From: a bacterium
Lineage (GTDB): Bacteria; Hydrothermota; UBA3073; JACQXS01
Reading direction: 5' to 3'
Assembly: GCA_030605695.1 (NCBI GenBank)
Contig: JAUWHX010000093.1
Coordinates: 6,681-70,680 of the forward strand
DNA: 64,000 bases
In this document: piece by piece, positions 8,174 to 54,644 of the stretch
Position numbering within the stretch: the stretch's first letter is position 1
How the letters are laid out: each line of letters opens with the position of its first letter
Program-made: the position numbers and the translations under genes
The notes under the pieces: generated by a model
What the model saw: the letters and a program-made list of their open reading frames with translations, nothing else
Database searches by the model: none
What the model was told of the DNA's origin: nothing

Positions 8174-9385
8174 ATGGATAATTCTTTTGTAGATACACTT
8201 CTTGAACTCGGAATCCTAACCAAACAACAACTTGAAACCGCTATAACCTATCAATGGGAAAATGGTGGCAAATTAGAAGAAAGTTTAATAAAACTTGACT
8301 ATTTCAATGAAGATACTCTTCTTTTTCTTTTAGAACGTAAATTTGGCTATTACCCTCTTAAGTTAAGTGAAGTAAGAATGGCCCCAGAAGCAACAAAACT
8401 TATTCCCTCTTGGCTTGTAAGACGTTTTCTTATCGTCCCCTTAAGACAATCAAACACAAGTCTTGCTTGTGTAATGATGAACCCTTTGGATAAAGAGGCA
8501 ATGTCCCAACTCAAAAAAGCAGTTTATTATGACATATTATCTTTCATTGCAAAAAAAAGTGATATTGAACAATTTATCTCTGAAAACTATGGGCAAAAGA
8601 TACCAGAAGAAGCAATGGCAGTTCAATCTGAAAGACCAAAATCTGAAATACCAGCTCTTCTTGAAAAATATACTTTTCAGAACTTTGTTACAGGAAAATG
8701 CAATGACCTTGCTTACTCAGTTGCTTTTTCCACTGCCAGAGGTTATTCTGAAGAAACAAATCCGCTGGTGATATATTCTGATGTCGGAATGGGCAAAACT
8801 CATCTTTTGGTTGCTATATGGAATTACATACTTGAACATAGACAACAAAGACAGATTTTTTTCACATCTTCTGAAAAATTTGTAAATGCTCTAAAAGAAG
8901 CATTAGAAACACACAAGTTGACCGAGTTTAAAGAACAATATGATAAAATAGATGTCTTGCTCATAGATGATATTGGACTTATAGCAGGAGATGAAGTAGC
9001 ACAACAACATTTCTTTCATATATTTAATGACCTTCACCAAAATTCTAAACAAATAATAGTTACTTCTGACCGTCCTCCGAAAGAATTTCCAACTCTTTCT
9101 GACCGCCTTAAATCAAGATTTGAAGGAGGACTTATAGCAAAAATAGACCCTCCTGACCTTGAAACACGAACTGCTATCCTGAAGTCTAAAGCAAAAGACC
9201 TAAATATACTTGATGAGCTTATCTCTTTAATTGCTCGTGAGGTAAGTGGCAATGTAAGAGAACTTGAAGGAGTTTTAAAAGAAGTTATCGCATATAAAAA
9301 ATATAAAAAAGAAAAGTTGACAAAAGAAACAGTAGAAGATATACTAATTAGAAGGTCAGTTATTAAGCCATACACTAATGGATAA
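8174..9385 (+). CDS. Fusion protein: GspE/PilB N-terminal (N1E / MshEN-like) domain plus DnaA-family AAA+ ATPase domain, with no DnaA DNA-binding domain
   Basis: Residues about 1-140 match the type II secretion ATPase N-terminal fold: (L/V)xxLGILTKQQLETAITYQ and LVRRFLIVPL....LACVMMNPLDKEAMSQLKKA. Residues about 165-400 carry DnaA domain-III signatures: NPLVIYSDVGMGKTHLL, DVLLIDDIGLIAGDEVAQQHFFHIFNDL, QIIVTSDRPPKE, LSDRLKSRFEGGLIAKIDPPDLETRTAILKSKA. The protein ends without a domain-IV HTH. Confidence 0.8.
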   Translation: MDNSFVDTLLELGILTKQQLETAITYQWENGGKLEESLIKLDYFNEDTLLFLLERKFGYYPLKLSEVRMAPEATKLIPSWLVRRFLIVPLRQSNTSLACVMMNPLDKEAMSQLKKAVYYDILSFIAKKSDIEQFISENYGQKIPEEAMAVQSERPKSEIPALLEKYTFQNFVTGKCNDLAYSVAFSTARGYSEETNPLVIYSDVGMGKTHLLVAIWNYILEHRQQRQIFFTSSEKFVNALKEALETHKLTEFKEQYDKIDVLLIDDIGLIAGDEVAQQHFFHIFNDLHQNSKQIIVTSDRPPKEFPTLSDRLKSRFEGGLIAKIDPPDLETRTAILKSKAKDLNILDELISLIAREVSGNVRELEGVLKEVIAYKKYKKEKLTKETVEDILIRRSVIKPYTNG

Positions 9386-11021
9386 GTCAAAATTAATTGA
9401 GTATTTTAGAAAAATGAATAAGTCAAAGTTAATTGAGTATTTGAAAAAGCCTTTAACTGGTGAACAGAAAGCATTAGGATTAGATATAGGAACTCGTCAT
9501 ATAAAGCTTGCCCAGATAAAGAAAATCCCAGGAGGTTATTTGCTTGAAAAATATGGAATAATAGAATTACCCCCAGAAGCAATCGTTGACAGAGAAATCA
9601 TGGACAGAGAAGTTCTCATTGAAAGTCTGAGAAAAATAATAGAAGATAACGGAGTTGAGGAAAAAAAGGTATCTACTGTTATATCTGGGAAAAATGTTAT
9701 TATTAAAAAACTTCTTGCTAAATCCCCCAAAAAACGAGAAGAGAAAAAAGTGTTTGAATCTCTTGCAAAAGAAAATATCCCATTTGACCTTAAAGAAGTT
9801 GTAATAGACTTCAAAAAGTTAAGAGAAAAAGACGAGGACATCGAGCTTGTTCTTGTTGGAGCAAAAAATGAAGTCCTTTATCCTTTAATAGATGTTTTGA
9901 AAGAAGCATCTCTTTTGCCTTGTAATATTGACATACCACCTTTTATTCTTAAATCCGCTTACCAAAAATATATACCTGAGGAAGGCACTTGCCTTTTAGT
10001 AAACATTGGGTTTGAACATGTATTAATAATGGCTGTCCGAGATGGAAATTATCTATTTGATGACGAAATTCCTATGGGAGTCCGCACTTTTATTGAAGAA
10101 ATTCAAAGAATATGCGGAATCGGAGCTAAGGAAGCAACCGCAGTGCTTCAGGGAGAAGAAGTTCAGGATGTAAAAGAAAAAGATATTGAGCGAGCAAAAA
10201 ACACTACAATTAAAAGGTTGTTATCCAGAATAGAGAGATTGTTACCAGAAATCTCCGAATGGAAACTTATCATTTTAGGTGGTGGTGGAGCAGGTATTCC
10301 AGGAATTCAAGAAACTTTCGCAGAAAAATTTAATACAAGTTGCGAAATCGGAAACCCTTTAAAAGAAATAGAATGTGGAGAAACTCCCCCAGATTACCCA
10401 CATCAACTTGATATTGCAATCGGATTAGCCATATCAAAACTTGAGAATACAGGAGTCAATCTCTTGCCACTTGAAGAGAGAGTAGAAGAAAAAAACAAAA
10501 TTCTCCAGGCACTTGACCAAGGGCTCCCTTTTTATAGTTTTATTGGAAGTGTTTTTATCCTCTCACTTATAGTATTTGGGATAACGAAAAAACAGCATAG
10601 AATTGAGAAAGAAATTGAGGATATGAAAACTCAACAAGAAGCACTTATACCTAAAGTAAATGAAGCTCGTGAACTAATGGGAAAAGAAAAGGAAGTAAGA
10701 ACCAAAGTGAAAGTTATACAAGATTTATCTATGCATAAGTATACGAGGGTTAAATTATTGGATGAAATAAATCACCTACTTCCTGAATATACCTGGCTTG
10801 TAACTTTAAATGAGGAGTTAGCAGATTCAATTGGAGGTATTGGTATCTTACTTCGTGGAATTACAACTTCAAACTTTGCAGTATCTGAGTTCATGCGTCG
10901 CCTTGAAGATTCAAACTATTTTACTGAGGTTGAACTAAGCTATACAAAAAGAGGCGAGATTTCTGAAACTGAAACAACAGAATTTGAAATAAAATCAAGA
11001 TTCGAAGAATTCAAAAAGTAA
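9378..11021 (+). CDS. pilMN: PilM-PilN fusion (type IV pilus assembly inner-membrane platform)
   Basis: N-terminal actin-like PilM motifs (LGLDIGTRHIKLAQI...; ...ILGGGGAGIPGIQE). After residue about 375 there is one transmembrane helix followed by a PilN-like periplasmic region. The start overlaps the upstream stop by 8 nt. The 5' end carries a 33-bp tandem duplication (MDKSKLIEYFRK / MNKSKLIEYLKK). Confidence 0.75.
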   Translation: MDKSKLIEYFRKMNKSKLIEYLKKPLTGEQKALGLDIGTRHIKLAQIKKIPGGYLLEKYGIIELPPEAIVDREIMDREVLIESLRKIIEDNGVEEKKVSTVISGKNVIIKKLLAKSPKKREEKKVFESLAKENIPFDLKEVVIDFKKLREKDEDIELVLVGAKNEVLYPLIDVLKEASLLPCNIDIPPFILKSAYQKYIPEEGTCLLVNIGFEHVLIMAVRDGNYLFDDEIPMGVRTFIEEIQRICGIGAKEATAVLQGEEVQDVKEKDIERAKNTTIKRLLSRIERLLPEISEWKLIILGGGGAGIPGIQETFAEKFNTSCEIGNPLKEIECGETPPDYPHQLDIAIGLAISKLENTGVNLLPLEERVEEKNKILQALDQGLPFYSFIGSVFILSLIVFGITKKQHRIEKEIEDMKTQQEALIPKVNEARELMGKEKEVRTKVKVIQDLSMHKYTRVKLLDEINHLLPEYTWLVTLNEELADSIGGIGILLRGITTSNFAVSEFMRRLEDSNYFTEVELSYTKRGEISETETTEFEIKSRFEEFKK

Positions 11022-11054
11022 GATGGTATTTGTAGCATTTTAAAAGGAGGAGAA

Positions 11055-11582
11055 ATGAAGTATGCCAAATTTTCTGTTTCCTGCATTCTGTTTTCTATAT
11101 TCTTTATGGGGTGTAATGAGAAACAACCATTAGATGACCCGGACAATGCAATAGTATCAGGGTATGTATACAAACGCGCAACACCAACTGACTCTGTAAT
11201 TGATACAATCATAAGAGACACCGCGGGTATCCCAATAGAAACATTGTGGACATATATAGACTGGACATTTTCTGACCCTGCCGAAAGTGTCCAAGTTTGG
11301 ATAGAATCGGATATTACATCTCCACTTCCTTATGCTGGTCCGGATATAGATGGCTATAGCGATTCAACCGGATTTTACAGCATTCCAATATATCTGGGGC
11401 ATACAGCAGTGAAAGCTTGCGGAGGAGATATAGTCGGATATGAATATACTTACTTTGCGGATGCCAGAGTCTTTGTGTTATATAAGGGTTTCATCTATGA
11501 CTTCGGTGGTGGCATAACTCTTGGCAGAGGAAGAGAATTTAGATTATTTCCTATATCTATTAGCTGGGTAAGACCACAATAA
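11055..11582 (+). CDS. Lipoprotein of unknown function inside the pilus-assembly operon
   Basis: Signal peptide with lipobox (FFMGC). AGGAGG RBS upstream. Confidence 0.5.
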   Translation: MKYAKFSVSCILFSIFFMGCNEKQPLDDPDNAIVSGYVYKRATPTDSVIDTIIRDTAGIPIETLWTYIDWTFSDPAESVQVWIESDITSPLPYAGPDIDGYSDSTGFYSIPIYLGHTAVKACGGDIVGYEYTYFADARVFVLYKGFIYDFGGGITLGRGREFRLFPISISWVRPQ

Positions 11583-11610
11583 ATGGAGTAACACAATAAA
11601 AGGAAATTAA

Positions 11611-12141
11611 ATGACAAGACCTCGCAGAATTTTAGTCTCGTGTTTGATTGTTATTCTTGTTTTCTTGGGCTTTTATAACTTCTTAATTAGACCGAAAATT
11701 AATCAAATACGTCTCCTCAACAAAAAACATGAGGATACAGCAAAAGTACTCAACAGTTCCTTTGAATATATAAAGAAGTATACGGATGTAAAGATGGCGT
11801 TTGAACATATCTCACATCAATGGAAAATACTTGAAAAATGTCTTCCAGATGAAGAAGAAATGCCCAACCTTCTTCGCTCTATGTCTGATGCAGGAAAGAG
11901 AAGTAATGTTAAGTCTATTCTTTTCAGACCACTTGCTAAAATTCCAAAGGATTTTTATCAAGAAAACCCTATCCAGGTAAAGACAACTTCTGGATACCAC
12001 GAAATTGGAACATTCTTGTCAATGATATCTGAACTGCCAAGACTTGTAAATGTAAGCAACCTTATGCTTGTATCATCAGAAAGTACGGAAAGAACATTAA
12101 AAGCAGAATTTATCGCTACGGCATATACAACAAAAAAATGA
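11611..12141 (+). CDS. pilO: PilO-like pilus assembly protein
   Basis: N-terminal transmembrane helix, coiled-coil, and a PilO-like C-terminal domain (...TSGYHEIGTFLSMISELPRLVNVSNLMLVS..). The stop codon TGA overlaps an ATG at 12138. Confidence 0.6.
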   Translation: MTRPRRILVSCLIVILVFLGFYNFLIRPKINQIRLLNKKHEDTAKVLNSSFEYIKKYTDVKMAFEHISHQWKILEKCLPDEEEMPNLLRSMSDAGKRSNVKSILFRPLAKIPKDFYQENPIQVKTTSGYHEIGTFLSMISELPRLVNVSNLMLVSSESTERTLKAEFIATAYTTKK

Positions 12142-12160
12142 ATACAGCAAAACTTAATTT

Positions 12161-12195
12161 CTCTTGTCTCTTGTCTCTTGTCTCTTGTCTCCTGT
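12161..12195. repeat. (CTCTTGT)4 + CTCCTGT heptanucleotide tract in the leader of the PilP-like gene
   Basis: Direct reading gives ctcttgt ctcttgt ctcttgt ctcttgt ctcctgt. It lies between the ATGA-coupled ATG at 12138 and the body of the downstream ORF. Confidence 0.85.
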
Positions 12196-12952
12196 CTATG
12201 GAGCAGAAGTAACCAGAATAAAGATTAAAAAAGTAGGTGAGTGTGTAAAAGTAATTGTATCTACTGACGCATCGCAATATAAAGATACAGTGCTTCACAA
12301 TCCTCAGAGAATAGTAATAGACTTTAAAAAATCATTTTCTCGTTTGCCAAAAGAGATAACTTCTTCATACCTTCCACTCTTAAAAATCAGAACCTCTCAA
12401 TATACAATAAATCCACCTACCACAAGAGTAGTGCTTGACCTTAAGAACAAAATCACTCATTCAATCTCTCTAATTAAAGGAGGATTAGAAATTAATCTTG
12501 GCAAAAAGATTCAGCCATCCCAAAAAGAATTGCCCATAAAACCCAAAGTAGAATCAAAAAAGGAACCAAAAGTAAAACCAACCAAAAAACCAAAAGTCAA
12601 ATTAACAGAGGAAATCAAAAAAACATCTGAACTACCTTCAGGACCAGAAGCTTTCTTCTATAATCCAAGAGGAAAGCGTGACCCATTTAGACCCTATCTG
12701 GGTGCCGATGTAAAGGATACTCTCCTTGATATAGGAACTGCAGCAATTGTTGGAATAATGTGGAGCCCCAAGGAAAAATATGCATTGGCACAGGACTCTC
12801 GAAATAGAGCATATATACTTCAGGAAGGAGACCATGTAAGCGGTGGAAAGGTCCTTCATATAAAAAAGAAAGAAGTGATTTTTCTTATGCGTGTTTTTGG
12901 AGGAAGAAAAAAAGTGATTTTGAAAGTAACACCAAAAAAGGAGGAAAAGTGA
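12164..12952 (+). CDS. AMIN-domain + PilP-like protein (secretin-associated); annotated from a TTG start
   Basis: AMIN-like segment (VTRIKIKKVGECVKVIVSTDAS...PQRIVIDFKKSF..), a Lys/Pro-rich linker, and a C-terminal PilP-like beta domain (..YALAQDSRNRAYILQEGDHVSGGKVLHIKKKEVIFL..). The upstream ATG at 12138 is out of frame by the heptamer tract. Confidence 0.55.
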   Translation: MSLVSCLLSPVYGAEVTRIKIKKVGECVKVIVSTDASQYKDTVLHNPQRIVIDFKKSFSRLPKEITSSYLPLLKIRTSQYTINPPTTRVVLDLKNKITHSISLIKGGLEINLGKKIQPSQKELPIKPKVESKKEPKVKPTKKPKVKLTEEIKKTSELPSGPEAFFYNPRGKRDPFRPYLGADVKDTLLDIGTAAIVGIMWSPKEKYALAQDSRNRAYILQEGDHVSGGKVLHIKKKEVIFLMRVFGGRKKVILKVTPKKEEK

Positions 12953-14151
12953 GAAAGTTCTTTATATTTTTAATTGTTTTTACACTAATTGTTCCTTCCA
13001 TTATGGGAGTTCAGAGAAACCGATTAATTTCTCTATCTTTCGAAAATGCAGATATACACACAGTCCTGCGTACATTTGCAAAACTTGGAGGTGTAAATGT
13101 TGTTGCATCTGAAGAAGTAACAGGAAAGGTTACATTACAACTTAAGTCAGTTCCCTGGGAACAAGCTTTCCAGACACTCCTACGAGTTCATGGCCTTACT
13201 TCAGTTGAAGAAAAAGGAATAATTGGAGTTATGACGATGGAGGAAAGCGAGAAACAAAAGCGAATTATCCCTCTTGAAACACGAATCTTTAGAATAAAAT
13301 ATGCAAAAGCAAAAAAACTTGAAACTACTATCTCCAGTATGCTTACAGAACGAGGCAAAATAAAAACCAATGAACGTACATCTTCACTAATTATTACAGA
13401 CATCCCAGACCTCCTTGATGAAATAGAAACTCTTATAGACATAATTGATACTCCAACTGCTCAGGTTATGATTGAGGCAAAAATAGTTGAAATAGATTAC
13501 AAAGCCGGGCGTGAACTTGGGATTGATTGGTGGGCTGGAGATGAAGAAAACCCCGCAAAAGATACATATTATGGAGGTGGAGTAAAAACCCCTATAGCTG
13601 AAAAAGGAAAATTTGTTTTTGGAACACTTCTTGATGGAATTAAAATAGAAGCTAAGCTTTCAATGCTTGAATCCCAAGATAAAGCTAATATACTCTCCCA
13701 ACCAAAAATTGCAGTTATGGATAATGAAGAAGCAATGGTCCTATCAGGAAAAAAGATTCCAATTATTACTCTTGACCGTGCAGGAAATAAAATTATAAAA
13801 TTTTATGATGTAGCTTTAAAACTCACTGTTACACCACATATAAACCCAGAAAATCAAGTTATGCTGGAGATTAATCCAGTAATTTCTGACCTTTCCTCTG
13901 AAGCTACTGTGGATGGTGGAATTATTATCCTCACAAGCGAAGTGCAAACTATCTTAATGGTAAATGATGGCCAAACTGCTGTAATTGCCGGTGTGATAAA
14001 AGAAAAAGAAAGCAAGGTCATCCGCGGAGTTCCGATATTATCAAAAATTCCTCTCATAGGAAGACTTTTTAAGTCAGTCTCTAAATCAAAAGATAAAACA
14101 GAACTTATGGTCTTCGTTACCCCGCATATCATCCCTATGGAAAAGAAATAA
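12949..14151 (+). CDS. pilQ: PilQ-type secretin, compact, with no AMIN domains of its own
   Basis: Signal peptide; secretin N-domain (LSFENADIHTVLRTFAKLGGVNVVASEEVTGKVTLQLKSVPWEQAF); C-terminal secretin domain (GVPILSKIPLIGRLFK...ELMVFVTPHII). Overlaps the upstream stop by 4 nt. Confidence 0.75.
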   Translation: MRKFFIFLIVFTLIVPSIMGVQRNRLISLSFENADIHTVLRTFAKLGGVNVVASEEVTGKVTLQLKSVPWEQAFQTLLRVHGLTSVEEKGIIGVMTMEESEKQKRIIPLETRIFRIKYAKAKKLETTISSMLTERGKIKTNERTSSLIITDIPDLLDEIETLIDIIDTPTAQVMIEAKIVEIDYKAGRELGIDWWAGDEENPAKDTYYGGGVKTPIAEKGKFVFGTLLDGIKIEAKLSMLESQDKANILSQPKIAVMDNEEAMVLSGKKIPIITLDRAGNKIIKFYDVALKLTVTPHINPENQVMLEINPVISDLSSEATVDGGIIILTSEVQTILMVNDGQTAVIAGVIKEKESKVIRGVPILSKIPLIGRLFKSVSKSKDKTELMVFVTPHIIPMEKK

Positions 14152-18497: not shown

Positions 18498-20876
18498 ATG
18501 ATGTATGGGTCTGATTGGCTAATTGCCGGATATTCTATAAGAAAATGGATAGGAGATTGCATCAGACAATATGGTAGCGGTCCTATGTGGGACCCATCTG
18601 CATTTGGAGGAATACCATTTGGCAATCCTTATACATTTTACTTTTTGTCTTTTCTGATTTTGCCTGTTCATGTGATTTGGACCTATATGTTTGTATTCGC
18701 TACATTTTTTGCCGGCCTGGGAATATACTTATATTTGAAAGAACTAAATATCTCTTTGTATTCTTCGTTTCTTGGAGCAATTGTTTATATGGGATGCGGT
18801 TCTGTTCTCTCAATGACTTACCCGGGGCACGATGGAAAAACATTAGCAACTGCCTTCTTTCCGTTTATTCTTCTCTTCTTACATAAGGCACTTACAAAAC
18901 ACAAACTTATTTACTTCTTATTTGCCGGAGCTGTAGGAGGACTTGCCGCTGTTAATGCTCATTTCCAACTTATTTACTACGCCGGTGTAATGTGCGTGTT
19001 TTATTTGCTCTATCACCTTATATGGCAACGTAAAGAGAATGGAATAAGAAAAACCATCATACTTATAGGATATTCACTTTGTGCCCTGATCCTTGCCGGT
19101 GGTTTGCTATCAATACACTACTTCCCTATATTCGGAACTATGGGATGGGGAGCAAGAGGTGCAGGTAGGGGATATGAGTTCGCCACCTCCTGGTCCTTGC
19201 CACCCAATGAGCTTTTGGATTTACTAACACCTTACTTCTCGGGATTACAAAATAACTATTGGGGAGAAAACTATTTTAAACTTGATACTCAATACTTAGG
19301 AATATTACCTTTGTTACTTGCTTTGCTTGCAATTGCTTTCAAGAGAAGAGAAAAATATGTCCGATTCTTTATAGGACTTTGTGTAGTTACTGTGATATTT
19401 GCGATTGGTGGACATACTCCACTTTATCGTATTCCATATTGGGTACTTCCAGGCTTAAAAAAACTCAGATGTCCTACAATGATTTTTTATCTCACAAGCT
19501 TTGGCATCGCAGTTCTTTCGGCATTTGGAGTCCAAACACTGACAAACAGAAGCCAGAAGCCAGAAGCCAGAAGCCAGAATATAAGAAATATTAGTATCTT
19601 ATTGGGAATAATATTTGGTATAGTTGTAATATTTGCTGTTATTTGTTCGGTTGGGAAGGAATCTATACTCTCCTCGTTGAAAACACGCTGGAGCCCAATT
19701 TTACTTGGTAAGTACGGTCCTCAACTCACTCAACAAAAATTACAGAACCTTTCTGAAAATTATCCTAATTTTCTTGGCGGATTGGGCAAAGCTATACTTT
19801 TAATAGCCATAAATTCTTTCTTGATTTTACTTTTAGCTATGAAACGACTAAAATTGAGAGTTTGGATTTTAATAGCTATACCAATACTTATATTTGACCA
19901 GTGGAGTATTGAGAAGAAATTTCTAAAAACCGTCTCACATCCCAAGCAATATTATGCTCCTGATGAAATCGTAAGTTTTTTGGGAAACCCGTCCCGAACC
20001 GTGACGGGTCGGGATGACCGAGAACTCTACCGCGTATTCCCACTTAATTATGAGCATTCTCAGGATGGATACCTTTCACTTTATAATATTCAAAGTTTAG
20101 GTGGATATGTTTCAAATCCTGGTGATAGATACCAGAAACTTATTGGCGCCGGTGAAAGTGTTATGTTCACTCCTTTAAATTTAATACGGTATAGGAATAT
20201 GCTTAACATCTTGAATGCCAAATATGTCATCTCTATGTGGGTTCCGGATGACCTATCAAAATATCCACCTAATACTCAACAGGTAATAAAAAGTTTCAAA
20301 GATGGTTTTTTAAGAAAATGGGGAACAAGCTGGGAAGAAGCACATAAAGGCTTTAAACTTGTTTATAGAAGCAATCGTGGGTATGGAATATATGAAAATG
20401 AAACTACTTTACCAAGAGTATGGTTGGTCCATAACTTCAAAGTCTTGTCTCGTGAGGAAGTTCTTGAGGAATTAAAAAACCCTACTTTTCACCCTGATAC
20501 TATAGTGCTTCTTGAGGAAGACCCCGAATTCCAAACCCCGAACCCTGAACCCCGAACCCCGAACCCCGAGAAAGTTGTAATCAATGAGTATTCGCCCAAC
20601 AAAATAATATGCACTGCCACTCTTGAATCGCCAGGTTTTCTAATATTCTCAGATAACTGGCATCCAGATTGGAAAGTTTGGGTTGACAAGAAAAAAGAAA
20701 AAGTTTACATTGCTGATTACACTTTGAGAGCAGTTCAGTTGGATAAAGGAGAGCACAGCGTGGAATTTAAGTATGATTCCTTGCATTTTAAGTTAGGAGC
20801 AATCGTGTTTTTCCTTTCATTCTTATTCTTTCTCGGTACAATTGGGTTCTGGTTTAAATTTTATAGAAGAAGATGA
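18498..20876 (+). CDS. yfhO: YfhO-family polytopic membrane glycosyltransferase; the true 5' end is probably at 18335, see findings
   Basis: Many transmembrane helices and a large C-terminal extracytoplasmic domain, as in YfhO-type glycopolymer glycosyltransferases. The frame is open back to the upstream stop and encodes a further TM helix (KIFIAILFILPVIYFASLL) with no ATG/GTG/TTG in that stretch. Confidence 0.65.
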   Translation: MMYGSDWLIAGYSIRKWIGDCIRQYGSGPMWDPSAFGGIPFGNPYTFYFLSFLILPVHVIWTYMFVFATFFAGLGIYLYLKELNISLYSSFLGAIVYMGCGSVLSMTYPGHDGKTLATAFFPFILLFLHKALTKHKLIYFLFAGAVGGLAAVNAHFQLIYYAGVMCVFYLLYHLIWQRKENGIRKTIILIGYSLCALILAGGLLSIHYFPIFGTMGWGARGAGRGYEFATSWSLPPNELLDLLTPYFSGLQNNYWGENYFKLDTQYLGILPLLLALLAIAFKRREKYVRFFIGLCVVTVIFAIGGHTPLYRIPYWVLPGLKKLRCPTMIFYLTSFGIAVLSAFGVQTLTNRSQKPEARSQNIRNISILLGIIFGIVVIFAVICSVGKESILSSLKTRWSPILLGKYGPQLTQQKLQNLSENYPNFLGGLGKAILLIAINSFLILLLAMKRLKLRVWILIAIPILIFDQWSIEKKFLKTVSHPKQYYAPDEIVSFLGNPSRTVTGRDDRELYRVFPLNYEHSQDGYLSLYNIQSLGGYVSNPGDRYQKLIGAGESVMFTPLNLIRYRNMLNILNAKYVISMWVPDDLSKYPPNTQQVIKSFKDGFLRKWGTSWEEAHKGFKLVYRSNRGYGIYENETTLPRVWLVHNFKVLSREEVLEELKNPTFHPDTIVLLEEDPEFQTPNPEPRTPNPEKVVINEYSPNKIICTATLESPGFLIFSDNWHPDWKVWVDKKKEKVYIADYTLRAVQLDKGEHSVEFKYDSLHFKLGAIVFFLSFLFFLGTIGFWFKFYRRR
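19547..19579. repeat. (CAGAAGC)4 heptanucleotide tract, in-frame in yfhO
   Basis: Direct reading gives cagaagc x4 + cagaa. It encodes RSQKPEARSQKPEARSQN in a predicted loop. Confidence 0.85.
20522..20570. repeat. (CCCCGAA)-type heptanucleotide tract of 7 units, in-frame in yfhO
   Basis: Units ccccgaa ttccaaa ccccgaa ccctgaa ccccgaa ccccgaa ccccgag, encoding DPEFQTPNPEPRTPNPEK. Confidence 0.85.
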
Positions 20877-30636: not shown

Positions 30637-32112
30637 TTATCTCATTAAAACTATTTTCTTTGTCGCCTTGAAATCACCTACATCCACTCTCACAAAGTAA
30701 ATACCTTTAGTAAGTTCCTCAAGATTTATTTCAACATCGTGATTCATTGTTAAAATAGTCTTTACTAACTTGCCTGATATATCGTAAATCGTTAATCGCA
30801 AATCGTTAATCGTGTAATCGTCCCGATTTTCGTTTAACGAATAACGAATAACGATTTTTTTGCTACATGGATTCGGAAAAACTCTTAACTCTAAACTCTT
30901 AACTTTTAACTCTTCACTCTCCTCCACATTTGTATTCTCACATTTATGACGCTTGTAATATATCTCCGAGTTGCTAGCCCCATGCCGCCAATCCGTCCAA
31001 GCTATATGAACATCATAATCATAATCGCAATTCCAACATGCTACAGAAACGCGTTCAGACTTGCCGACAGAATTGGTTAACATCTCATCGGTTCCCCAAG
31101 TCTCACCATCATTGACTGACCGATTGTAATATATCTCATAGTCGCTATCCCGCTCATCTACCCAAACTACATGAACTGCTGAATCACAAACTGCTATAGA
31201 AGGATCCCCTGAGTAAGCAGAGTTAGTAGTTAATCTCCTATTATCTATCCCCCAAGTCTCTCCATTATCAACTGACCGATTGTAATATATTTCATAGTTG
31301 CTATCACGCCAATCATACCAAACTATATGGACTATTGAATCACAAACTGCTATAGAAGAACACCCTGAGTAAGCAGAGTTATCGGTTAGTCTCTTATTAT
31401 CTATCCCCCAAGTCTCTCCATTATCAACTGACCGATTGTAATATATCTCATAGTTGCCAGCACGCTCATCTATCCAAACTATATGGACTATTGAATCACA
31501 AACTGCTACCGAAGGATACCCTGCGGGAGCAGGGTCATTAGTTAGGCTCTTATCTATCCCCCAAGTTTCTCCATTATCAACTGACCGATTGTAATATATA
31601 TCAGCGTCGCCATCACGAAAATCATACCAAACTATATGAACTATTGAATCACAAACTGCTACCGAAGGACAAGATGAGTCAGCAGGGTCATCAGTTATCC
31701 TCTCATCTATCCCCCAAGTCCCACCATTATCAACTGACCGATTGTAATATATCTCCGTGTTGCCATCACGGTTATCATACCAAACTATATGAACCATCGA
31801 ATCACAAACTGCTACCGAAGGAAAATGAGAATCCCCTGTAGTTAGCCGTGTATCCGGGTCAAAGCTACTCCCAGAATTGATAGACCTTATATAATAAAGC
31901 TCGCCTGGATTATCACCCAATCTGTGCTCCCAAAAAATATGCACCATAGTATCCCGTACTGCTATTGCCCAAGCATTATTGTAGCCATCATAGTCAACAT
32001 GGCTTGGATAAACAGTTAATCTTTTATCTGGATTCTCCCACTGCCCATACAAATCCACAGGATTCTGCGAACTGCAAGCTCCCAACACCATCAAAAATCC
32101 CCATTTCTTCAT
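30637..32112 (-). CDS. BNR/Asp-box repeat T9SS cargo protein
   Basis: Repeated SVDNGETWG / SVNDGETWG Asp-box motifs (x6); C-terminal domain ..LRVFPNPCSKKIVIRYSL...[14 protein letters not shown]...GIYFVRVDVGDFKATKKIVLMR. Confidence 0.75.
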   Translation of the reverse strand: MKKWGFLMVLGACSSQNPVDLYGQWENPDKRLTVYPSHVDYDGYNNAWAIAVRDTMVHIFWEHRLGDNPGELYYIRSINSGSSFDPDTRLTTGDSHFPSVAVCDSMVHIVWYDNRDGNTEIYYNRSVDNGGTWGIDERITDDPADSSCPSVAVCDSIVHIVWYDFRDGDADIYYNRSVDNGETWGIDKSLTNDPAPAGYPSVAVCDSIVHIVWIDERAGNYEIYYNRSVDNGETWGIDNKRLTDNSAYSGCSSIAVCDSIVHIVWYDWRDSNYEIYYNRSVDNGETWGIDNRRLTTNSAYSGDPSIAVCDSAVHVVWVDERDSDYEIYYNRSVNDGETWGTDEMLTNSVGKSERVSVACWNCDYDYDVHIAWTDWRHGASNSEIYYKRHKCENTNVEESEELKVKSLELRVFPNPCSKKIVIRYSLNENRDDYTINDLRLTIYDISGKLVKTILTMNHDVEINLEELTKGIYFVRVDVGDFKATKKIVLMR

Positions 32113-35773: not shown

Positions 35774-37279
35774 TTAAACCTTATTTATTAGCAATTTAAG
35801 GGGTATAGCTATACTGAATAAAAAGAATATTCCAACACATAGCCAGGCGAACCAATCACCCCATCTCGCATAAAAGGTTAAATTTTTCCTCAGAGGTATA
35901 TCTCCTACAATTACTCTACGGGTAAAAATGCTTGTAGCAGATTTTACTTCTCCGCTTGGCTCAACAAAATACGAGATTCCTGTATTGCCACATCTTACAA
36001 GTGGGACACGATACTCTATTGCTCGCAATATTGCCTGTCGTGCATGTTGATAAGGACCCGCAGTGCGTCCAAACCAGCAATCATCTGTTATATTTACGAG
36101 AAACTGTGCCCCGTTACGCACGAACTTTCTTGAAGCTCTTGAGAAAATAGACTCAAAACAAATTAAAGGAGAAAATTTCGTGAGTCGTGAGTCGTGAGTC
36201 GTGAGTTGCGAGTTTTCAGAACTTACATTCAATTCAAAAACCTTGTACTCCTCACCTTGAGAGAAGTTGCCTTGACCGAATTGAAGCTTTTGTATAGTAG
36301 GAAATATTTTATCAAAAGGAAGACGTTCCGAAAAAGGGACTAAATAAATTTTATCATAAATTCTTTTAACTCCCTCACAAGGGACAATAAAAAAGCAAGA
36401 ATTATAGATTCTTGCGGGCTTTTTATCAAAATCAAGTCTTGCACCCCCCATCAATACAGGAATATTCAATGAATCCACGACTCCCACTACTCGTGATTCT
36501 AAATTGCCGAGATTAAAATACCCAGGTATCGCTGATTCTGGCCAAACAATCAAGTCGCAACTGCCTGCATTTTTACTTAGTTCGTAAAGTAGAGAAAGTC
36601 TATATTCAAGGTTGCTTCCTCTTTTTATTTCAGGAGCTACATTTGGTTGTATAACTCCGACTCTCACTTTTAACTTTTCACTTTTAACTTTTAACTTTTT
36701 CAATGCTATGGTTCCTTGAAGCCAGACACCCAAAACTATAATAATTGCTGTATAAATATATCGCAAGTTTCTCTTTCTCAACGTATAAAAGAGAAGTGTA
36801 TTTATGAGCATTATAAAAAATGTTATTCCCGAGACTCCCACAAATTCAGCAAGTTGAACAAATTTGAGATAAGGAATAACCGTATGTCCTATGCTTCCCC
36901 AGGAAAAGCCCATTTCAGGAGCCAAGCCACGAAGGAACTCAATAGATGTCCAGATAATTGGGATAAGAGGAAAGCATCTAATACGAGATGTAGCCCACAT
37001 AGATAGCCCAAACATCACTCCAAAATATATAAATAAAAGTAACGCCCCTAACCATAGCCATCCACGCACAGGGGCATCTACTGCAAGCACCCAATATATT
37101 AAGCCGGCACCGAAAGCAAATCCTGATATAAATCCATATTTAAGTGCGTGGTTAGATTTATAGCATGCAAAAAACAAGGGGATGAAACTAAAAAAAGCAA
37201 GCCAGGGAATCCAGTAAAAAGAAACAAGGAGTAAGCCAGCACTTGCCAAACTGAGTAATAATCCATTTCTATAATTCAT
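35774..37279 (-). CDS. lnt: Apolipoprotein N-acyltransferase
   Basis: N-terminal polytopic domain plus a C-terminal CN-hydrolase domain with catalytic E...K...C (..VWPESA.., ..LICFES..). Contains an in-frame heptamer-derived insert, FSENSQLTTHDSRLTKFSP. Confidence 0.8.
   Translation of the reverse strand: MNYRNGLLLSLASAGLLLVSFYWIPWLAFFSFIPLFFACYKSNHALKYGFISGFAFGAGLIYWVLAVDAPVRGWLWLGALLLFIYFGVMFGLSMWATSRIRCFPLIPIIWTSIEFLRGLAPEMGFSWGSIGHTVIPYLKFVQLAEFVGVSGITFFIMLINTLLFYTLRKRNLRYIYTAIIIVLGVWLQGTIALKKLKVKSEKLKVRVGVIQPNVAPEIKRGSNLEYRLSLLYELSKNAGSCDLIVWPESAIPGYFNLGNLESRVVGVVDSLNIPVLMGGARLDFDKKPARIYNSCFFIVPCEGVKRIYDKIYLVPFSERLPFDKIFPTIQKLQFGQGNFSQGEEYKVFELNVSSENSQLTTHDSRLTKFSPLICFESIFSRASRKFVRNGAQFLVNITDDCWFGRTAGPYQHARQAILRAIEYRVPLVRCGNTGISYFVEPSGEVKSATSIFTRRVIVGDIPLRKNLTFYARWGDWFAWLCVGIFFLFSIAIPLKLLINKV
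36181..36215. repeat. (TGAGTCG)3 + 2 variant units heptanucleotide tract inside lnt
   Basis: Direct reading gives tgagtcg x3, tgagttg, cgagttt. Confidence 0.85.
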
Positions 37280-46823: not shown

Positions 46824-47963
46824 ATGATGAGTATATTTTTACTTTTGTTTGGAGTTTTGTGGAATGAGAAAAAGCAAGTAGATACTTTATTGCCGGAACT
46901 TGCCTGGCCCTATTATATATTTGAATCCACTGAGATTGAGGGATATAAAGTAATGATGTTTGAGCCCTCTATGCCCTGTTCTGTGCGTCAATTTATGTGT
47001 GGAGTAGGTTCTATGGCAGATGATGCAAGCAAGGAATGTGAATTATTTGTGTGGAGTGATGCTGGCGGGGAACCTGGATTGTTATTGTTTAATGAAAGTA
47101 TTACTATTAGTGCAACTGATTCTGGCAAGGTTTACTTTTACTGGCATAAATTGAGTTCGCCGGTATCGGTAGTGGGACCGTTTTGGATTGGAGTTAAGGA
47201 ACAAGGGTGTTTATTTCCCACTATAGTTTTTGATGAACTTCAAAAAACATCGGGCAAGTCTATTCATAGTAAAGATGGGACAGATTGGCAAACTTTTGAT
47301 GGGGATTATTTTTATGGTGTAGTGATTGATTATGGAGGAGAAGCTGAGATTTATGTAGAGCCGGATTCACTTGAGTTACTTATGAAAGAAGGTCAAGTTG
47401 ATTCTGAAGTAATATGGGTTTATAATAAGTCGCCTTCCTGTGATTTATCAGTAGATAGTGTTTGCTGGAGCAAGAATTGGATTTTATCTGTGAATCCCGA
47501 AGCTTTTTTATTAGCACCCGGCAGTTCAAAGCGTGTGGATGTAGTTGTTGAAGGTTCAGGAGTTGGGGAATACAATGATACTCTCTGGATTTTTTCAAAT
47601 GACCCCGATAAGAGTATATATCCTGTGCCAGTGCTGCTTTCGGTTGTCGGAGTAGAGGAGGGTTTAGGGTTCAGGGTTCAGGGTTTAGAGTTGAGAGTTT
47701 TTCCGAATCCAGCTTTGGGAGTAGCAAGTATCAGATTTCAGATGCCAGATGCCAGATGCCAGAACTCCGGCAGGAGACATCTAACATCTAACATCTCATT
47801 AAAAATTTATGATGTTGCAGGGAAATTAGTGAATGTACTTTTTGAAGGAGAAAAGGAGTGGGGGGTTCATACTTTATCGGTTAAGCTCACAGGTGGTGTT
47901 TATTTTGTGAAACTCAAAGCAAATGGTCAGGAAATAATCAAAAAACTTATAATAATAAGATGA
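46824..47963 (+). CDS. T9SS cargo protein of unknown function
   Basis: Intact C-terminal domain (..LRVFPNPALGVASIRFQ...ISLKIYDVAGKLVNVLF...GGVYFVKLKANGQEIIKKLIIIR). The linker before it is encoded by GGTTYAG and CAGATGC heptamer tracts (47661-47766). Confidence 0.65.
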   Translation: MMSIFLLLFGVLWNEKKQVDTLLPELAWPYYIFESTEIEGYKVMMFEPSMPCSVRQFMCGVGSMADDASKECELFVWSDAGGEPGLLLFNESITISATDSGKVYFYWHKLSSPVSVVGPFWIGVKEQGCLFPTIVFDELQKTSGKSIHSKDGTDWQTFDGDYFYGVVIDYGGEAEIYVEPDSLELLMKEGQVDSEVIWVYNKSPSCDLSVDSVCWSKNWILSVNPEAFLLAPGSSKRVDVVVEGSGVGEYNDTLWIFSNDPDKSIYPVPVLLSVVGVEEGLGFRVQGLELRVFPNPALGVASIRFQMPDARCQNSGRRHLTSNISLKIYDVAGKLVNVLFEGEKEWGVHTLSVKLTGGVYFVKLKANGQEIIKKLIIIR

Positions 47964-48957: not shown

Positions 48958-51075
<2,118 letters not shown>

Positions 51076-51076
51076 T

Positions 51077-52297
51077 ATGAAAGAATTTATTCGAAGAATC
51101 CTGTGGATAGGAGTAATTTTATTTATATATTCGTCCTGCCTGTCAGCTGACCCTTGTGGATTAGACTTGAAGGTTCTTCAAGATTCATTGAACTTGCGAG
51201 GTAGTCCCTGGGTTGCAGGAACAACATCTGTTTCTGAACTTTCTTGTGAAGCCAAACGCAAGTTATGTTGTGAGATATTTCCTGACCCTATTGAAGTCTA
51301 TAGGGATAAAAGTGTAGAAGGTCTTTGCTTCCCTCCTTCTTGGGATTGGCGAAACCATAAAGGACATAATTGGATGACACCTGTCAAGAGTCAACTGGGT
51401 TGTTGTTGTTGTGGGTGTTTTGCTACTGTTGCTGGATTTGAATCTCGGCTAAAGATTGTGAACAACCTTCCTGATACAAACATTGACCTTTCTGAGGAAT
51501 TTTTCATCTCCTGTGATTTCCGCGATTTTGGATGTCATGGAGGAAGTTTAGATTGGTATGCGCAATTTGTGGCAGAGACAGGAGTTCCGGATGAAGATTG
51601 TTTTCCATATATAGCAGAGGTTTTGCCCTGTTGTATGTCCTGCCCTGATTGGGAAAATAGAGTCAAGAAAGCTAAAACTTGGAAAACTACATCCTATGTT
51701 ACAGAATATAAATTACGGATAATGGAAGGACCTTTAGCATGTTTGTTAACTCCTTATTTAGACTTTTTTTATTATAAGGGTGGGGTTTATGAACCTATTA
51801 TTGGAGAGAAATATGTTCACGCGGTTTGTTTATGTGGATGGGATGATGTAAAAGGAGCATGGCTTGTAAAAAATTCAGGAGGTGAGGGCTGGGGTGAAAA
51901 AGGATACGCTTGGATACGTTATGGTGAGGAGGAATTAGTGGGCCCCGGACATCCAGTCTGGTTAGAGGTAGAAGCATCTAAAGATTTTAGAGACAGTTTA
52001 GAGTTTAAAGTTGAGAGTTTAGAGTTGAGGGTTTGTCCAAATCCATTCAGAGAGAAAACCGTTATTCGTTATTCGTTAAGTGCAAATCAGATAATTGATG
52101 ATTTGCGATTCACGATTCACGATATCGCTGGGAGATTTGTTCGGGAAATTCCGACTCACGACTCACGAATCACGAATCACGAAATAGTGTGGGCTGGCAA
52201 TGATGAATTAGGAAATAAAGTAACACCTGGTATTTATTTCTTGCGAGCCGAATTAGATAATAAAAAGTATATCAAGAAAGTAGTTTTATTGAAGTAG
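51077..52297 (+). CDS. Papain-like (C1A) cysteine peptidase T9SS cargo
   Basis: Q...C region, YVHAVCLCGWDD (catalytic His), VKNSGGEGWGEKGYAWIRYG (Asn/Trp region), plus an intact C-terminal sorting domain. Confidence 0.65.
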   Translation: MKEFIRRILWIGVILFIYSSCLSADPCGLDLKVLQDSLNLRGSPWVAGTTSVSELSCEAKRKLCCEIFPDPIEVYRDKSVEGLCFPPSWDWRNHKGHNWMTPVKSQLGCCCCGCFATVAGFESRLKIVNNLPDTNIDLSEEFFISCDFRDFGCHGGSLDWYAQFVAETGVPDEDCFPYIAEVLPCCMSCPDWENRVKKAKTWKTTSYVTEYKLRIMEGPLACLLTPYLDFFYYKGGVYEPIIGEKYVHAVCLCGWDDVKGAWLVKNSGGEGWGEKGYAWIRYGEEELVGPGHPVWLEVEASKDFRDSLEFKVESLELRVCPNPFREKTVIRYSLSANQIIDDLRFTIHDIAGRFVREIPTHDSRITNHEIVWAGNDELGNKVTPGIYFLRAELDNKKYIKKVVLLK

Positions 52298-52394: not shown

Positions 52395-54644
52395 ATGTGG
52401 ATTTTCTTATGGTTTTGTTTAATTTCCAATCCGTCAGCTCACAACGAGTCTGCCCATACGGGTCTTGAGACGACCGATGGTTCGAAGAATCCTGTCGCAG
52501 ACTCCTTTGGAGCGGAAGAAAAGGCAGGTTTTGATTCTTTAAATATGAATTTTGTGGGTAATTGGCCCTTTGGGTCGGGGTCTTGGGCTGTTGCAGCTGA
52601 TTCTTCAAGGGGAATTGTTTTTTTGGGAGCAAGTGGAGGAGTGTATTCAATAGATGTAAATACTCCCTCAAACCCGATAAAGATTTCCGAAGGAATTCAT
52701 ACCAGAGGACTTGTTCGTGATTTATTTTATAGAGATAGCACTCTCTACATAGCAGACGGAAAAGGAGGATTTGAGATATGGAATGTCAAAAACTCAGGTA
52801 ATCCAGAAAAACTTGGGTATTATCTTACGAGTGGTAAAGCATGGGGTGTTGGAGTTAGTGGGGATTACGGATATATTGCAGATTATAGTTCTGGACTTTG
52901 TATTATAGATATTAAGAATCCCAACAATCCACAAGAGCTTGGTTCCTGTGAAGGAATCGGATATGCATACAATGTAGCAGTATCAGGAGATTACGCATAT
53001 ATTGCAGATTGCAATAACGGACTTCGGGTTATAGATATTTCTGATTCTTCTAATCCGCAAGAGGTTGGTTTATACACTGCACCGAGTTATACAGAGGCCG
53101 TAGCACTGAGTGGAAATTACGCATATGTCGCTTGCTATGACTCTGGGCTTCGCATAGTGGATATTAGTGATTCTTCTAATCCTCATGAGGTGGGCGCATA
53201 TGATACTCCTGGCTATGCATTAAATGTAGCGATAAGAGGTACTTATGCTTATGTAGCAGATTGTAATCACGGGCTTCGTATAGTGGATATTAGTATAGCT
53301 TCTAACCCTCATGAAGTGGGTGCGTGTGACATATCAGGGTTTTTATTTGATGTGGTGGTATTTGGGAACTATGCATATGTGGCAGATGAACTTGCTGGAC
53401 TTCGGGTTATAGATATTAGTGACTCCTCTAATCCTCAAGAAGTAGGAATTTATAAAATTCCTCATCATGCATACGGTGTCGCAATAGATGGAAATTATGC
53501 CTATGTTGCAGACTGCAAGGCTGGACTTCGAGTGCTGGATATCGCAGACCCATCGAATCCTAAAGAAATTGGATGCAAGGAAACTCCAGGGCGACTTCGA
53601 GATTTAGCGATAAAAGGAAACTATGCGTATGTAGCGAATGGTATATGCGGGCTTGGTGTTTATGATATAATGACTCCATCGAATCCAATATATATAAGAG
53701 AATGCCCACTAACGGGTTATTCCTGGGATATAGCGATAAATGATAGTTATGCGTATGTTGCAGCTCAAAATTCTGGATTACGGGTTATAGATATAAAAGA
53801 CCCCCGAGAACCTCATAGTATAGGATTTTGCCCTGTGTGGCAGACAAGAGCTGTTACGGTATCAGGAAATTATGCTTATGTTGGAGATGGACCCTTTGGG
53901 GTTCATATTATAGATATCAGTAACCCTTATCATCCAGAGAAAAAAGGTAGTTATGTTACACCTGGAAATGTATTAGCCGTGGCAGTATCAGGAGATTACG
54001 CATATATTGCAGATTGCAATAACGGACTTCGGGTAATTGATATTAGGAATCCTGATTCACTTAAAGAAATAGGATTTTGCGATACACCCGGCAATGCAGA
54101 GGATGTGGTAGTACTTGGAGACTATGCGTATGTAGCAGATTGTGGAAGTGGAGTTCGTGTTATAGATATTTCTGACCCTTTTAATCCGAAGGAAGTTGCC
54201 TTTTATGATACTCCGGGATATGCTCTGGGAATTGCTGTTGATGGAGAATATATATATATAGCAGACAAGAATGCGGGAATTCAGATTTATAAAATTTCAT
54301 TTACAGGAGTGGCAGAAAAGAGTGATCGCGACCTCTATGTTGCGAGTTCTTGGATTAGGACAAGAATGGGAAAAGGAGGCGTTCTTGTAGAATATAGCTT
54401 ACCTCTCTTAACTCTCAACTCCCAACTCCCAACTATTTTCTTATATGATGTTCTTGGAAGAGAGATTGACAAGTTTGAGCTTGATACAAAAACTCGTCCC
54501 TCCCAACCCCTAACCCCTAATCCCCAAACCCTAGCTCACGAGTTCTGGATTGATATGAATAACTATGCAAATGGAGTTTATTTTATTAAACTAACCCTGC
54601 CAGACAGAACTACAAAGAAGTGCAAGTTCATCTGGGTTCAATAG
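52395..54644 (+). CDS. LVIVD-repeat beta-propeller T9SS cargo (second paralog)
   Basis: More than 14 LVIVD-type repeats and a divergent C-terminal sorting domain. The 5' region carries the dispersed repeats R1+R2 in-frame. Confidence 0.7.
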   Translation: MWIFLWFCLISNPSAHNESAHTGLETTDGSKNPVADSFGAEEKAGFDSLNMNFVGNWPFGSGSWAVAADSSRGIVFLGASGGVYSIDVNTPSNPIKISEGIHTRGLVRDLFYRDSTLYIADGKGGFEIWNVKNSGNPEKLGYYLTSGKAWGVGVSGDYGYIADYSSGLCIIDIKNPNNPQELGSCEGIGYAYNVAVSGDYAYIADCNNGLRVIDISDSSNPQEVGLYTAPSYTEAVALSGNYAYVACYDSGLRIVDISDSSNPHEVGAYDTPGYALNVAIRGTYAYVADCNHGLRIVDISIASNPHEVGACDISGFLFDVVVFGNYAYVADELAGLRVIDISDSSNPQEVGIYKIPHHAYGVAIDGNYAYVADCKAGLRVLDIADPSNPKEIGCKETPGRLRDLAIKGNYAYVANGICGLGVYDIMTPSNPIYIRECPLTGYSWDIAINDSYAYVAAQNSGLRVIDIKDPREPHSIGFCPVWQTRAVTVSGNYAYVGDGPFGVHIIDISNPYHPEKKGSYVTPGNVLAVAVSGDYAYIADCNNGLRVIDIRNPDSLKEIGFCDTPGNAEDVVVLGDYAYVADCGSGVRVIDISDPFNPKEVAFYDTPGYALGIAVDGEYIYIADKNAGIQIYKISFTGVAEKSDRDLYVASSWIRTRMGKGGVLVEYSLPLLTLNSQLPTIFLYDVLGREIDKFELDTKTRPSQPLTPNPQTLAHEFWIDMNNYANGVYFIKLTLPDRTTKKCKFIWVQ

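Follow-up and report, generated by a model that had tools for sequence, protein, structure and literature searches.

This locus raises the question of whether a gene of a type IV pilus machine has been broken, has been misassembled, or is switched by a short tandem repeat. The DNA analysed, hereafter called the window, is a stretch of 64,000 nt from contig JAUWHX010000093.1 (assembly GCA_030605695.1). The gene concerned lies between pilO and pilQ and encodes a protein with an AMIN domain and a PilP domain (AMIN-PilP), and a heptanucleotide tract is located in the part that encodes its signal peptide. With reasonable but limited confidence, we favour the view that this tract is a slippage-prone heptamer microsatellite. 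In this interpretation, the assembly records a real 5-unit genotype in which the exported AMIN-PilP is OFF or leaky, and the pilus alignment complex is switched ON and OFF, at least de facto, by the tract. The features on which the argument is built are the following.

11611..12141, + strand: pilO (Pfam PilO 5.2e-28); its stop codon TGA (12139-12141) overlaps the next start.
12138..12140, + strand: coupled, ancestral ATG start of AMIN-PilP, in an ATGA overlap and without a Shine-Dalgarno sequence of its own.
12138..12212, + strand: out-of-frame remnant of the 5-unit allele read from this ATG, 24 codons and then TAA (12210-12212).
12161..12195, + strand: heptanucleotide tract (CTCTTGT)x4 + CTCCTGT, encoding the hydrophobic core of the signal peptide.
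12164..12952, + strand: AMIN-PilP frame as assembled, from a TTG start, without n-region and without a Shine-Dalgarno sequence.

The repeat tract, its reading frames and the sibling allele

The tract begins 23 nt after the start codon and is flanked on its two sides by GCAAAACTTAATTT and CTATGGAGCAGAAG. The length of its unit is not divisible by three. With Tandem Repeats Finder (TRF), a repeat of period 7 with 5.4 copies was called at 12160-12197 (score 69, 96% matches), and the perfectly periodic run inside it extends over 12160-12191 (32 nt, 4.6 units). The two-unit pattern with at most one mismatch gave 4 matches against 0.04 expected, which places the tract far beyond chance, and the 64 kb contain a single CTCTTGT array. 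The frame that starts at ATG 12138 in the assembled 5-unit allele reads MNTAKLNFSCLLSLVSCLLSMEQK. The AMIN-PilP frame is shut by TAA 12155-12157, and its earliest opening is TTG 12164, followed by a second in-frame TTG at 12185. The predicted mature protein begins at GCA 12203 (the A of AEV), behind the Y-G encoded at 12197-12202. A first-pass annotation of this DNA had already described the overlap of the pilO stop with an ATG, the early stop in the frame of that ATG, the access to the AMIN-PilP frame by TTG only, and the tract of ctcttgt x4 + ctcctgt between the two starts; all of these were recovered at the positions given above. Its remark that such coupling is common in the window also holds, as shown by the pilP/pilQ junction and four further four-base overlaps of start and stop codons (at 20873, 28107, 47960 and 6368).

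The locus was rebuilt in silico with 1-12 units. The two frames were joined solely at 3, 6, 9 and 12 units, which gave products of 266-287 aa, and every other count gave 17-41 aa. The 6-unit form (42 nt, 14 codons) begins with MNTAKLNFSCLLSLVSCLLSPVYGAEV... and has 273 aa, and the 9-unit form has 280 aa with three blocks of the SCLLSLV type. The hydrophobic core is very short in the 3-unit form and very long in the 9-unit form, and six units are probably the only good ON state. The first-pass annotation had placed the tract in the signal-peptide-coding region and had proposed that one added unit restores an exported AMIN-PilP. Both points are borne out, and a six-unit in-frame allele exists in a sibling strain. 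The fused peptide that it printed for one extra unit needs correction, as it is that of the 9-unit form and not of the 6-unit form.

The sibling allele was observed in a contig of an ENA metagenome (L003) with ~94% nucleotide identity to the window. Its AMIN-PilP (P0018, 273 aa) belongs to the 90% cluster of the window protein, and its N-terminus reads MNTAKLKFFCLLSLVFCLLSPVYG before AEV. The tract of L003 (TTTTGTC TCTTGTC TCTTGTC TTTTGTC TCTTGTC TCCTGTC) consists of six units in frame from the coupled ATG, two of which are interrupted by C-to-T changes, and P0018 has exactly the length predicted for six units. Over 3.1 kb, the window and L003 differ by 174 substitutions and by one net indel, which is the 7-nt unit itself, and the rest of the L003 operon is intact except for a scaffold gap. 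The copy number therefore differs between strains, with five units (OFF) in the window and six units (ON) in L003, and these are the two alleles known. Exact-protein look-ups of PilO, PilQ and the window's AMIN-PilP as deposited at NCBI (P0001) returned one Logan run and three short ENA contigs only. The exact 23-nt upstream flank had 0 matches in JGI metagenome contigs, and contig L005 ends before the tract.

The orthologs point to the same start codon. Seventeen homologues were found, and all complete N-termini among them carry a signal peptide that measures 17-26 residues and has Y/N/H/E-G/A/S at its end, directly before the AMIN domain, as in the 64% homologue (MNNLLHKFFSLLLTAHCLLSTTYG before ADV) and the 63% homologue (MNTIKTKLFFFLLSIFCLNPLYAG before RV). 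In the DNA of the 63% and 64% homologues (L125, L174), the ATGA overlap with pilO is kept and the signal peptides measure 24-26 aa. N-termini of the type MNT.../MNN... and the ATGA overlap are common to L003, L125 and L174. Two homologues with short N-termini (P0004 and P0008) have intact in-frame upstream ATGs in their DNA, and their starts were miscalled. On this ground P0004, P0008 and P0009 were rejected as further frameshifted orthologs, P0009 being judged by its likeness to P0008 alone. A Shine-Dalgarno sequence is missing before both ATG 12138 and TTG 12164, while several neighbour genes have one. This pattern is consistent with coupled initiation at the ATG and speaks against a start at the TTG, from which a protein without a charged n-region and with a short hydrophobic stretch only would result. 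It follows from the sibling allele and the ortholog starts that the coupled ATG 12138 is the ancestral and true start, that six units are functional, and that the window allele has one unit less. The first-pass annotation had taken the coupled ATG for the real start and had proposed a comparison with orthologs. The ATGA overlap and the full signal peptide in the orthologs, together with the intact 273-aa sibling protein, agree with it, and the orthologs start at the equivalent of the ATG and not of the TTG.

We propose the following mechanism. Translation of the six-unit form would begin at the coupled ATG, and the product would carry a 24-aa Sec signal peptide (MNTAKLNFSCLLSLVSCLLSPVYG before AEV). 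In the genotype of the assembly, which has one unit less, ribosomes from the coupled ATG would stop after 24 codons. The AMIN-PilP frame could then be entered only at a TTG with neither a ribosome-binding site nor a usable signal peptide, and the exported protein would be OFF, at most leaky, in the 5-unit allele. The gain of one unit or the loss of two by slipped-strand mispairing would restore the gene. The 5-unit allele probably reflects a real genotype, and switching within the population may be frequent and reversible. PilP is required for piliation in Pseudomonas, Neisseria and Myxococcus, and by analogy with these species the loss of AMIN-PilP would be expected to abolish piliation. Evolved switching is plausible but unproven.

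Possible length variation in the population and competing explanations

Evidence on further alleles was sought in Logan assemblies, which are contigs of k=31 de Bruijn graphs from which singleton k-mers have been dropped (PMC12424806). For run SRR14876850, contig L001 matches window positions 8891-12189 with 100% identity and ends with ...CTCTTGTC inside the tract, and contig L002 of the same run begins at window position 12162 (TCTTGTC...). The k=31 graph was simulated for candidate allele mixtures. Five units alone produced no break, and a mixture of five and four units, or of five units and the sibling allele, produced breaks elsewhere. Both observed ends were reproduced exactly by a mixture of five and six units, by six units alone, or by five units together with an unrelated long (CTCTTGT)n array. 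Thus, the run holds a periodic stretch longer than the 32 nt of the window, which is either a longer allele of the tract or a foreign array. These breakpoints are suggestive of a longer allele (six or more units) of the pilP tract in SRR14876850. In a second sample, contig L004 ends just before window position 12163, 2 nt into the tract. The bases that distinguish the window type from the sibling type near the start of the tract are 12158, which lies in the flank and at which L004 equals the window, and 12163. This hints at heterogeneity at the tract in that sample as well. The YfhO-like protein and apolipoprotein N-acyltransferase (Lnt), which contain other heptamer arrays of the window, were looked up as controls for such Logan breaks, and their exact sequences were not on record.

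Several observations weigh against a switch. An unrelated long (CTCTTGT)n array in the sample explains the breakpoints in SRR14876850 just as well as a longer allele does, and (CTCTTGT)x4 or longer occurs in at least 119 GTDB species, mostly in non-coding DNA among the matches listed, including a WOR-3 metagenome-assembled genome (MAG); the MAG that contains the window was not among the matches listed. Logan k-mers cannot tell a mixture of five and six units from six units alone, and the unit counts come from assembled contigs and not from individual reads. Four perfect units (32 nt periodic) are short for a classical contingency locus and lie at the low end of known loci. Heptamer arrays are also present inside genes of housekeeping or essential type (Lnt, YfhO-like), and for this reason selected switching cannot be deduced from the mere position of an array in a gene. 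Some ribosomes may also initiate weakly at the TTG and give MSLVSCLLSPVYG before AEV. Moreover, pilQ has its own Shine-Dalgarno sequence, so that the secretin may be made in the OFF state, and it is uncertain whether OFF would silence the whole machine or exert a polar effect on the secretin.

One explanation that would dispense with switching is that a single unit was lost once and became fixed, either in a young pseudogene or in an organism for which the pilus is dispensable. The documented alleles are one of five and one of six units, each from a different strain; no more than four units of the tract are perfect; and arrays occur throughout the genome, housekeeping genes included, which makes special selection unneeded. 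On the other hand, the remaining operon is intact, and the downstream AMIN-PilP frame is free of lesions over 262 codons and keeps ~94% protein identity to the intact gene of the sibling. In addition, the run with identical flanks yields a k=31 graph that only a longer periodic stretch can explain, and the gain of a single unit restores the gene. We therefore regard fixed inactivation without appreciable switching as unlikely, though as deserving serious attention.

An artefact of assembly or consensus, in which six real units were collapsed to five in the MAG contig, is improbable. A population in which all tracts have six units accounts for the Logan contigs just as well as a mixture of five and six does, and a 5-unit uninterrupted tract joined to both flanks was found in no independent assembly. 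The flanks, however, are 100% identical to the independent contig L001, which speaks against a chimera there. Illumina reads greatly exceed the tract (35-42 nt) in length, and the larger k values of common metagenome assemblers exceed it too, so that a collapse of exactly one unit unsupported by reads would be unlikely.

Normal expression in spite of the shift, by initiation at TTG 12164/12185 or by ribosomal or transcriptional recoding, can be given hardly any weight: the NCBI protein P0001 is annotated from the TTG, and this codon, 23 nt past the pilO stop, could be reached by a ribosome that re-initiates, but its product has no charged n-region and a short hydrophobic stretch, a Shine-Dalgarno sequence is missing before the codon, the orthologs all begin at the equivalent of the ATG with a full signal peptide, and the in-frame sibling allele makes recoding unnecessary. 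Recoding across the repeat was rejected, as the tract contains neither a slippery site of the type X XXY YYZ nor a homopolymer and Rfam gave no matching element. The TTG start of the deposited annotation hides the frameshift, and MAG pipelines will systematically mis-start or split such genes.

The AMIN-PilP protein and its operon

The protein is an AMIN-PilP fusion that connects, in the periplasm, PilMNO with the PilQ secretin of a type IV pilus machine. Its AMIN domain was recognized by Pfam (PF11741, 2.2e-09), and the Pfam match to PilP was under the cut-off (17 bits vs 25.6). A profile of 18 homologues was compared with the Protein Data Bank (PDB). The N-terminal half matched the AMIN domain of Myxococcus PilQ (3jc8_Q, 3.4e-12) and AmiC (4bin, 3.6e-5), and the C-terminal half matched Myxococcus PilP (3jc8_P, 5.5e-4). 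In the AlphaFold (AF2) model, the predicted local distance difference test (pLDDT) values are 80-92 in both domains, and the Lys/Pro-rich linker is disordered. A Foldseek search with this model retrieved Pseudomonas PilP (2y4y) with a template modelling (TM) score of 0.74-0.75 and a root-mean-square deviation of 2.6-2.8 Å, and further PilP matches were 3jc8_P (E 1.6e-5), 2lc4 and Neisseria 2ivw. For the AMIN half, the AMIN domain of AmiC (4bin) was retrieved, and also the B2 domain of PilQ (4aqz). The gene is located between pilO and pilQ in a cluster of the pilMNOPQ type, and the closest named relatives are MAGs of WOR-3 / Candidatus Stahlbacteria. With the canonical systems of Pseudomonas, Neisseria and Myxococcus, it shares the order pilM-N-O-P-Q, a C-terminal PilP fold of the beta-sandwich type, and an AMIN domain like that of PilQ and AmiC. 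It differs in that the AMIN domain, which binds peptidoglycan, is joined to PilP, and in that PilQ is a short protein of 400 aa without AMIN, whereas in the model systems AMIN is a part of PilQ.

The signal peptide is a further difference. Canonical PilP is a lipoprotein, and the first-pass annotation had accordingly read the LVSC of the fused peptide as lipobox-like. We scored the lipobox by a PROSITE-like rule in the sibling and 10 other orthologs. Only the reconstructed 6- and 9-unit forms of the window gene agreed with the rule (NFSCLLSLVSC, Cys17). In the sibling the corresponding residues are LVFC, and a lipobox was found in 0/10 of the other orthologs. What is conserved instead is an end of the signal-peptidase-I type, Y-G/A before the AMIN domain. 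Since TGT is a Cys codon, LVSC was attributed to the repeat unit itself, as a by-product. As judged from this conservation pattern, the AMIN-PilP family does not seem to consist of lipoproteins, and the lipoprotein identity of AMIN-PilP was rejected. In contrast to canonical PilP, the family therefore has a signal peptide of the signal-peptidase-I type and no conserved lipobox.

The other genes of the operon and its immediate surroundings are as follows.

9378..11021, + strand: pilM-pilN fusion at the head of the alignment-subcomplex genes (Pfam PilM_2 5.7e-35, PilN 9e-14).
11055-11582: small putative lipoprotein, between pilM-pilN and pilO.
12939..12944, + strand: Shine-Dalgarno sequence AGGAGG of pilQ, inside the 3' end of the AMIN-PilP gene.
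12949..14151, + strand: pilQ secretin, a short form with N0/N1/secretin domains and no AMIN (Pfam Secretin 5.1e-46, Secretin_N, N0/STN).

The gene order at the pilM-pilN locus is identical in L174 and L003. The GTG start of pilQ overlaps the pilP stop (GTGA at 12949), and PilQ has its own signal peptide (MRKFFIFLIVFTLIVPSIMG). The NCBI annotation places the PilQ start 18 codons late (382 aa), with the signal peptide lost. Directly upstream of pilMN, at 8174-9385, a protein with MshEN and a DnaA-type AAA+ ATPase is encoded, and its position is conserved in L174. MshEN is the N-terminal domain of ATPases of type IV pili and type II secretion systems and binds cyclic di-GMP. Its combination with AAA+ is an unusual architecture beside a pilus operon. 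The 5' end of pilM-pilN (9378-9449) contains a 36-nt in-frame tandem duplication (MDKSKLIEYFRK / MNKSKLIEYLKK), which is present as a single copy in the sibling L003. Two more repeats were observed, one of period 14 at 11072-11103 in the signal peptide of the small putative lipoprotein and one of period 8-9 at 11648-11667 in the transmembrane segment of PilO. Hydrophobic segments seem to be favoured places for repeat growth.

Period-7 repeats in the window and known switching systems

The pilP tract is not an isolated repeat. Seven perfect arrays of period 7 with at least three copies are present in the window, compared with 0 in third-order Markov simulations, and no perfect array of period 5, 6 or 8-12 was found there. 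By TRF, about 28 imperfect period-7 arrays were detected in the 64 kb. All seven perfect arrays lie inside open reading frames (ORFs), namely in the pilP signal peptide, in a YfhO-like protein (2), in Lnt, and in three cargo proteins of the type IX secretion system (T9SS). Those in the cargo proteins are at 47739, 50766 and 52163. The arrays outside the pilus operon are the following.

19547-19579: CAGAAGC x4.7, in the YfhO-like membrane protein.
20547-20569: GAACCCC x3.3, in the YfhO-like membrane protein.
36178-36206: TCGTGAG x4.1, in the CN-hydrolase region of Lnt.
30781-30920 (- strand), 47659-47796, 50766-50960, 51995-52183, 54410-54531 and 63746-63779 (- strand): array clusters in T9SS sorting domains, with 2-4 different heptamers each.

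The YfhO-like protein and Lnt are encoded by envelope genes of housekeeping type, and a slip by one unit would turn either gene into a null allele. The clusters are hosted by the C-terminal Por_Secre_tail / FlgD_ig domains of the cargo proteins, and their positions there are fixed: just before (V/I)(Y/F)PNP, before IYD(I/V)xG(K/R)L, and after the latter. Related units (AACTCTN, AATCGTN, TCACGAN) recur among the cargo paralogues, and in arrays that would yield an in-frame stop one unit is mutated and the stop is avoided. A one-unit slip in these arrays would remove the sorting signal. In an alignment of C1 peptidase paralogues, in-frame variation was seen in those parts of the sorting domain that the repeats encode, and no clean comparison of copy number was obtained from it. 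The pilP tract is the only array in the window that breaks a gene. The ORF pairs 20873/21522, 24104/24448 and 40927/41624 were considered as repeat frameshifts and proved to be separate genes.

Similar repeats were also observed in relatives. The 63% and 38% AMIN-PilP orthologs contain decayed arrays of about six units in the signal-peptide region, with a lag-7 identity of 0.57 and 0.66 (p<2e-4). The units of these decayed arrays are different, CTGCTCA and ACTTTTT (L125 606-650; L128 about 1100-1140). In L172, GTTTTAT x3.3 is present at 830-852 in the signal peptide of PilQ. Over-representation of heptameric simple sequence repeats has been described in many bacteria, with length variation between close relatives, and a bias of polymerase slippage toward 7 nt has been proposed (PMC4692102; PMC4679880). 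In this period-7 context, slippage at the pilP tract is very plausible.

Arrays of the CTCTTGT unit itself, with 4 to ~16 units, were observed in contigs L006-L124 from unrelated species of Flavobacteriia, Vibrio, Saccharibacteria, Gammaproteobacteria, Acidobacteriota and others, often several per genome. A few of them lie in signal peptides and encode ...LSLVSC..., as in a lipoprotein of Bacteroides ovatus (L013), in WOR-3 (L023), in Aminicenantia (L043) and in L047. In the WOR-3 MAG (L023), the array forms the hydrophobic core of the signal peptide of another protein, which is HEAT-like.

A wider idea, which we consider doubtful, is that heptamers are preferentially kept in the sorting signals of WOR-3-like organisms and form a distributed contingency system of the surface proteome, the pilP tract being one instance of it. 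The sorting signals would be the C-terminal domains of many T9SS cargo proteins and the Sec signal peptides of AMIN-PilP (here and in the 63% and 38% relatives), of PilQ in L172 and of the HEAT-like protein in L023. The idea draws on one 64-kb window and a few relatives. If it were true, slippage would toggle the export of single surface or secreted proteins and leave their catalytic parts untouched, for example in defence against pilus- and surface-binding phages.

For the pilP tract as a switch, the significance would lie in the host and in the target. Phase variation by repeats is textbook knowledge in host-adapted pathogens and is hardly documented in uncultivated environmental phyla, and repeats with units of 5-11 nt in free-living bacteria are usually regarded as intergenic oddities. 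Should 5- and 6-unit alleles prove to be mixed, a WOR-3/Stahlbacteria-like organism would provide a clear example of a heptanucleotide switch within the coding sequence of a core gene of type IV pilus assembly. Such a case would point to selection (pilus-dependent phages, attachment versus dispersal) acting via a Neisseria-like mechanism.

The opa repeats of Neisseria typically comprise 7-28 units. They are CTCTT pentamers in the region that encodes the leader peptide, and their copy number sets the frame, and thereby ON or OFF, by slipped-strand mispairing (PMC3960869). The first-pass annotation had drawn this parallel, and it is apt as a mechanism (PMC3960869). In common with opa, the tract described here is a pyrimidine-rich coding repeat with a unit that is not a multiple of three, and it encodes the Leu/Ser-rich core of the signal peptide of an envelope protein. 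Unlike opa, it has a unit of 7 nt instead of 5, only 4-5 units, a single-copy machinery gene rather than an adhesin family as its target, and an uncultivated environmental host. A second parallel is Neisseria pilC, for which a 1991 study by Jonsson et al. is said to have found that a poly-G tract in the signal-peptide-coding region switches piliation ON/OFF. Here too the repeat is located in the signal-peptide-coding part of a gene for type IV pilus biogenesis. It is, however, a heptamer and not a homopolymer, and PilP is a component of the alignment complex whereas PilC is a tip adhesin/biogenesis factor. In Haemophilus influenzae, heptamers inside ORFs (AACAACC in a TonB-dependent receptor homologue and AATTTTG in hmw1A) have been proposed to be phase-variable from genome comparison alone (PMC2651432). 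The pilP tract resembles them in being intragenic, in differing in copy number between strains and in truncating the ORF. It is shorter than those tracts, which have 8-14 units and belong to a host-adapted pathogen. The enrichment specific to period 7 is shared with the short tandemly repeated repetitive (STRR) sequences of cyanobacteria, GGGAATC of Xanthomonas and TAACTGA of Beggiatoaceae. Those repeats are mostly intergenic and reuse one or few units, whereas the perfect arrays here are coding and have many different units. Judged by its structure and by the difference between the two strains, the pilP tract would qualify as a contingency locus of the opa/pilC type, in which a known mechanism is found in an unusual host and on an unusual target.

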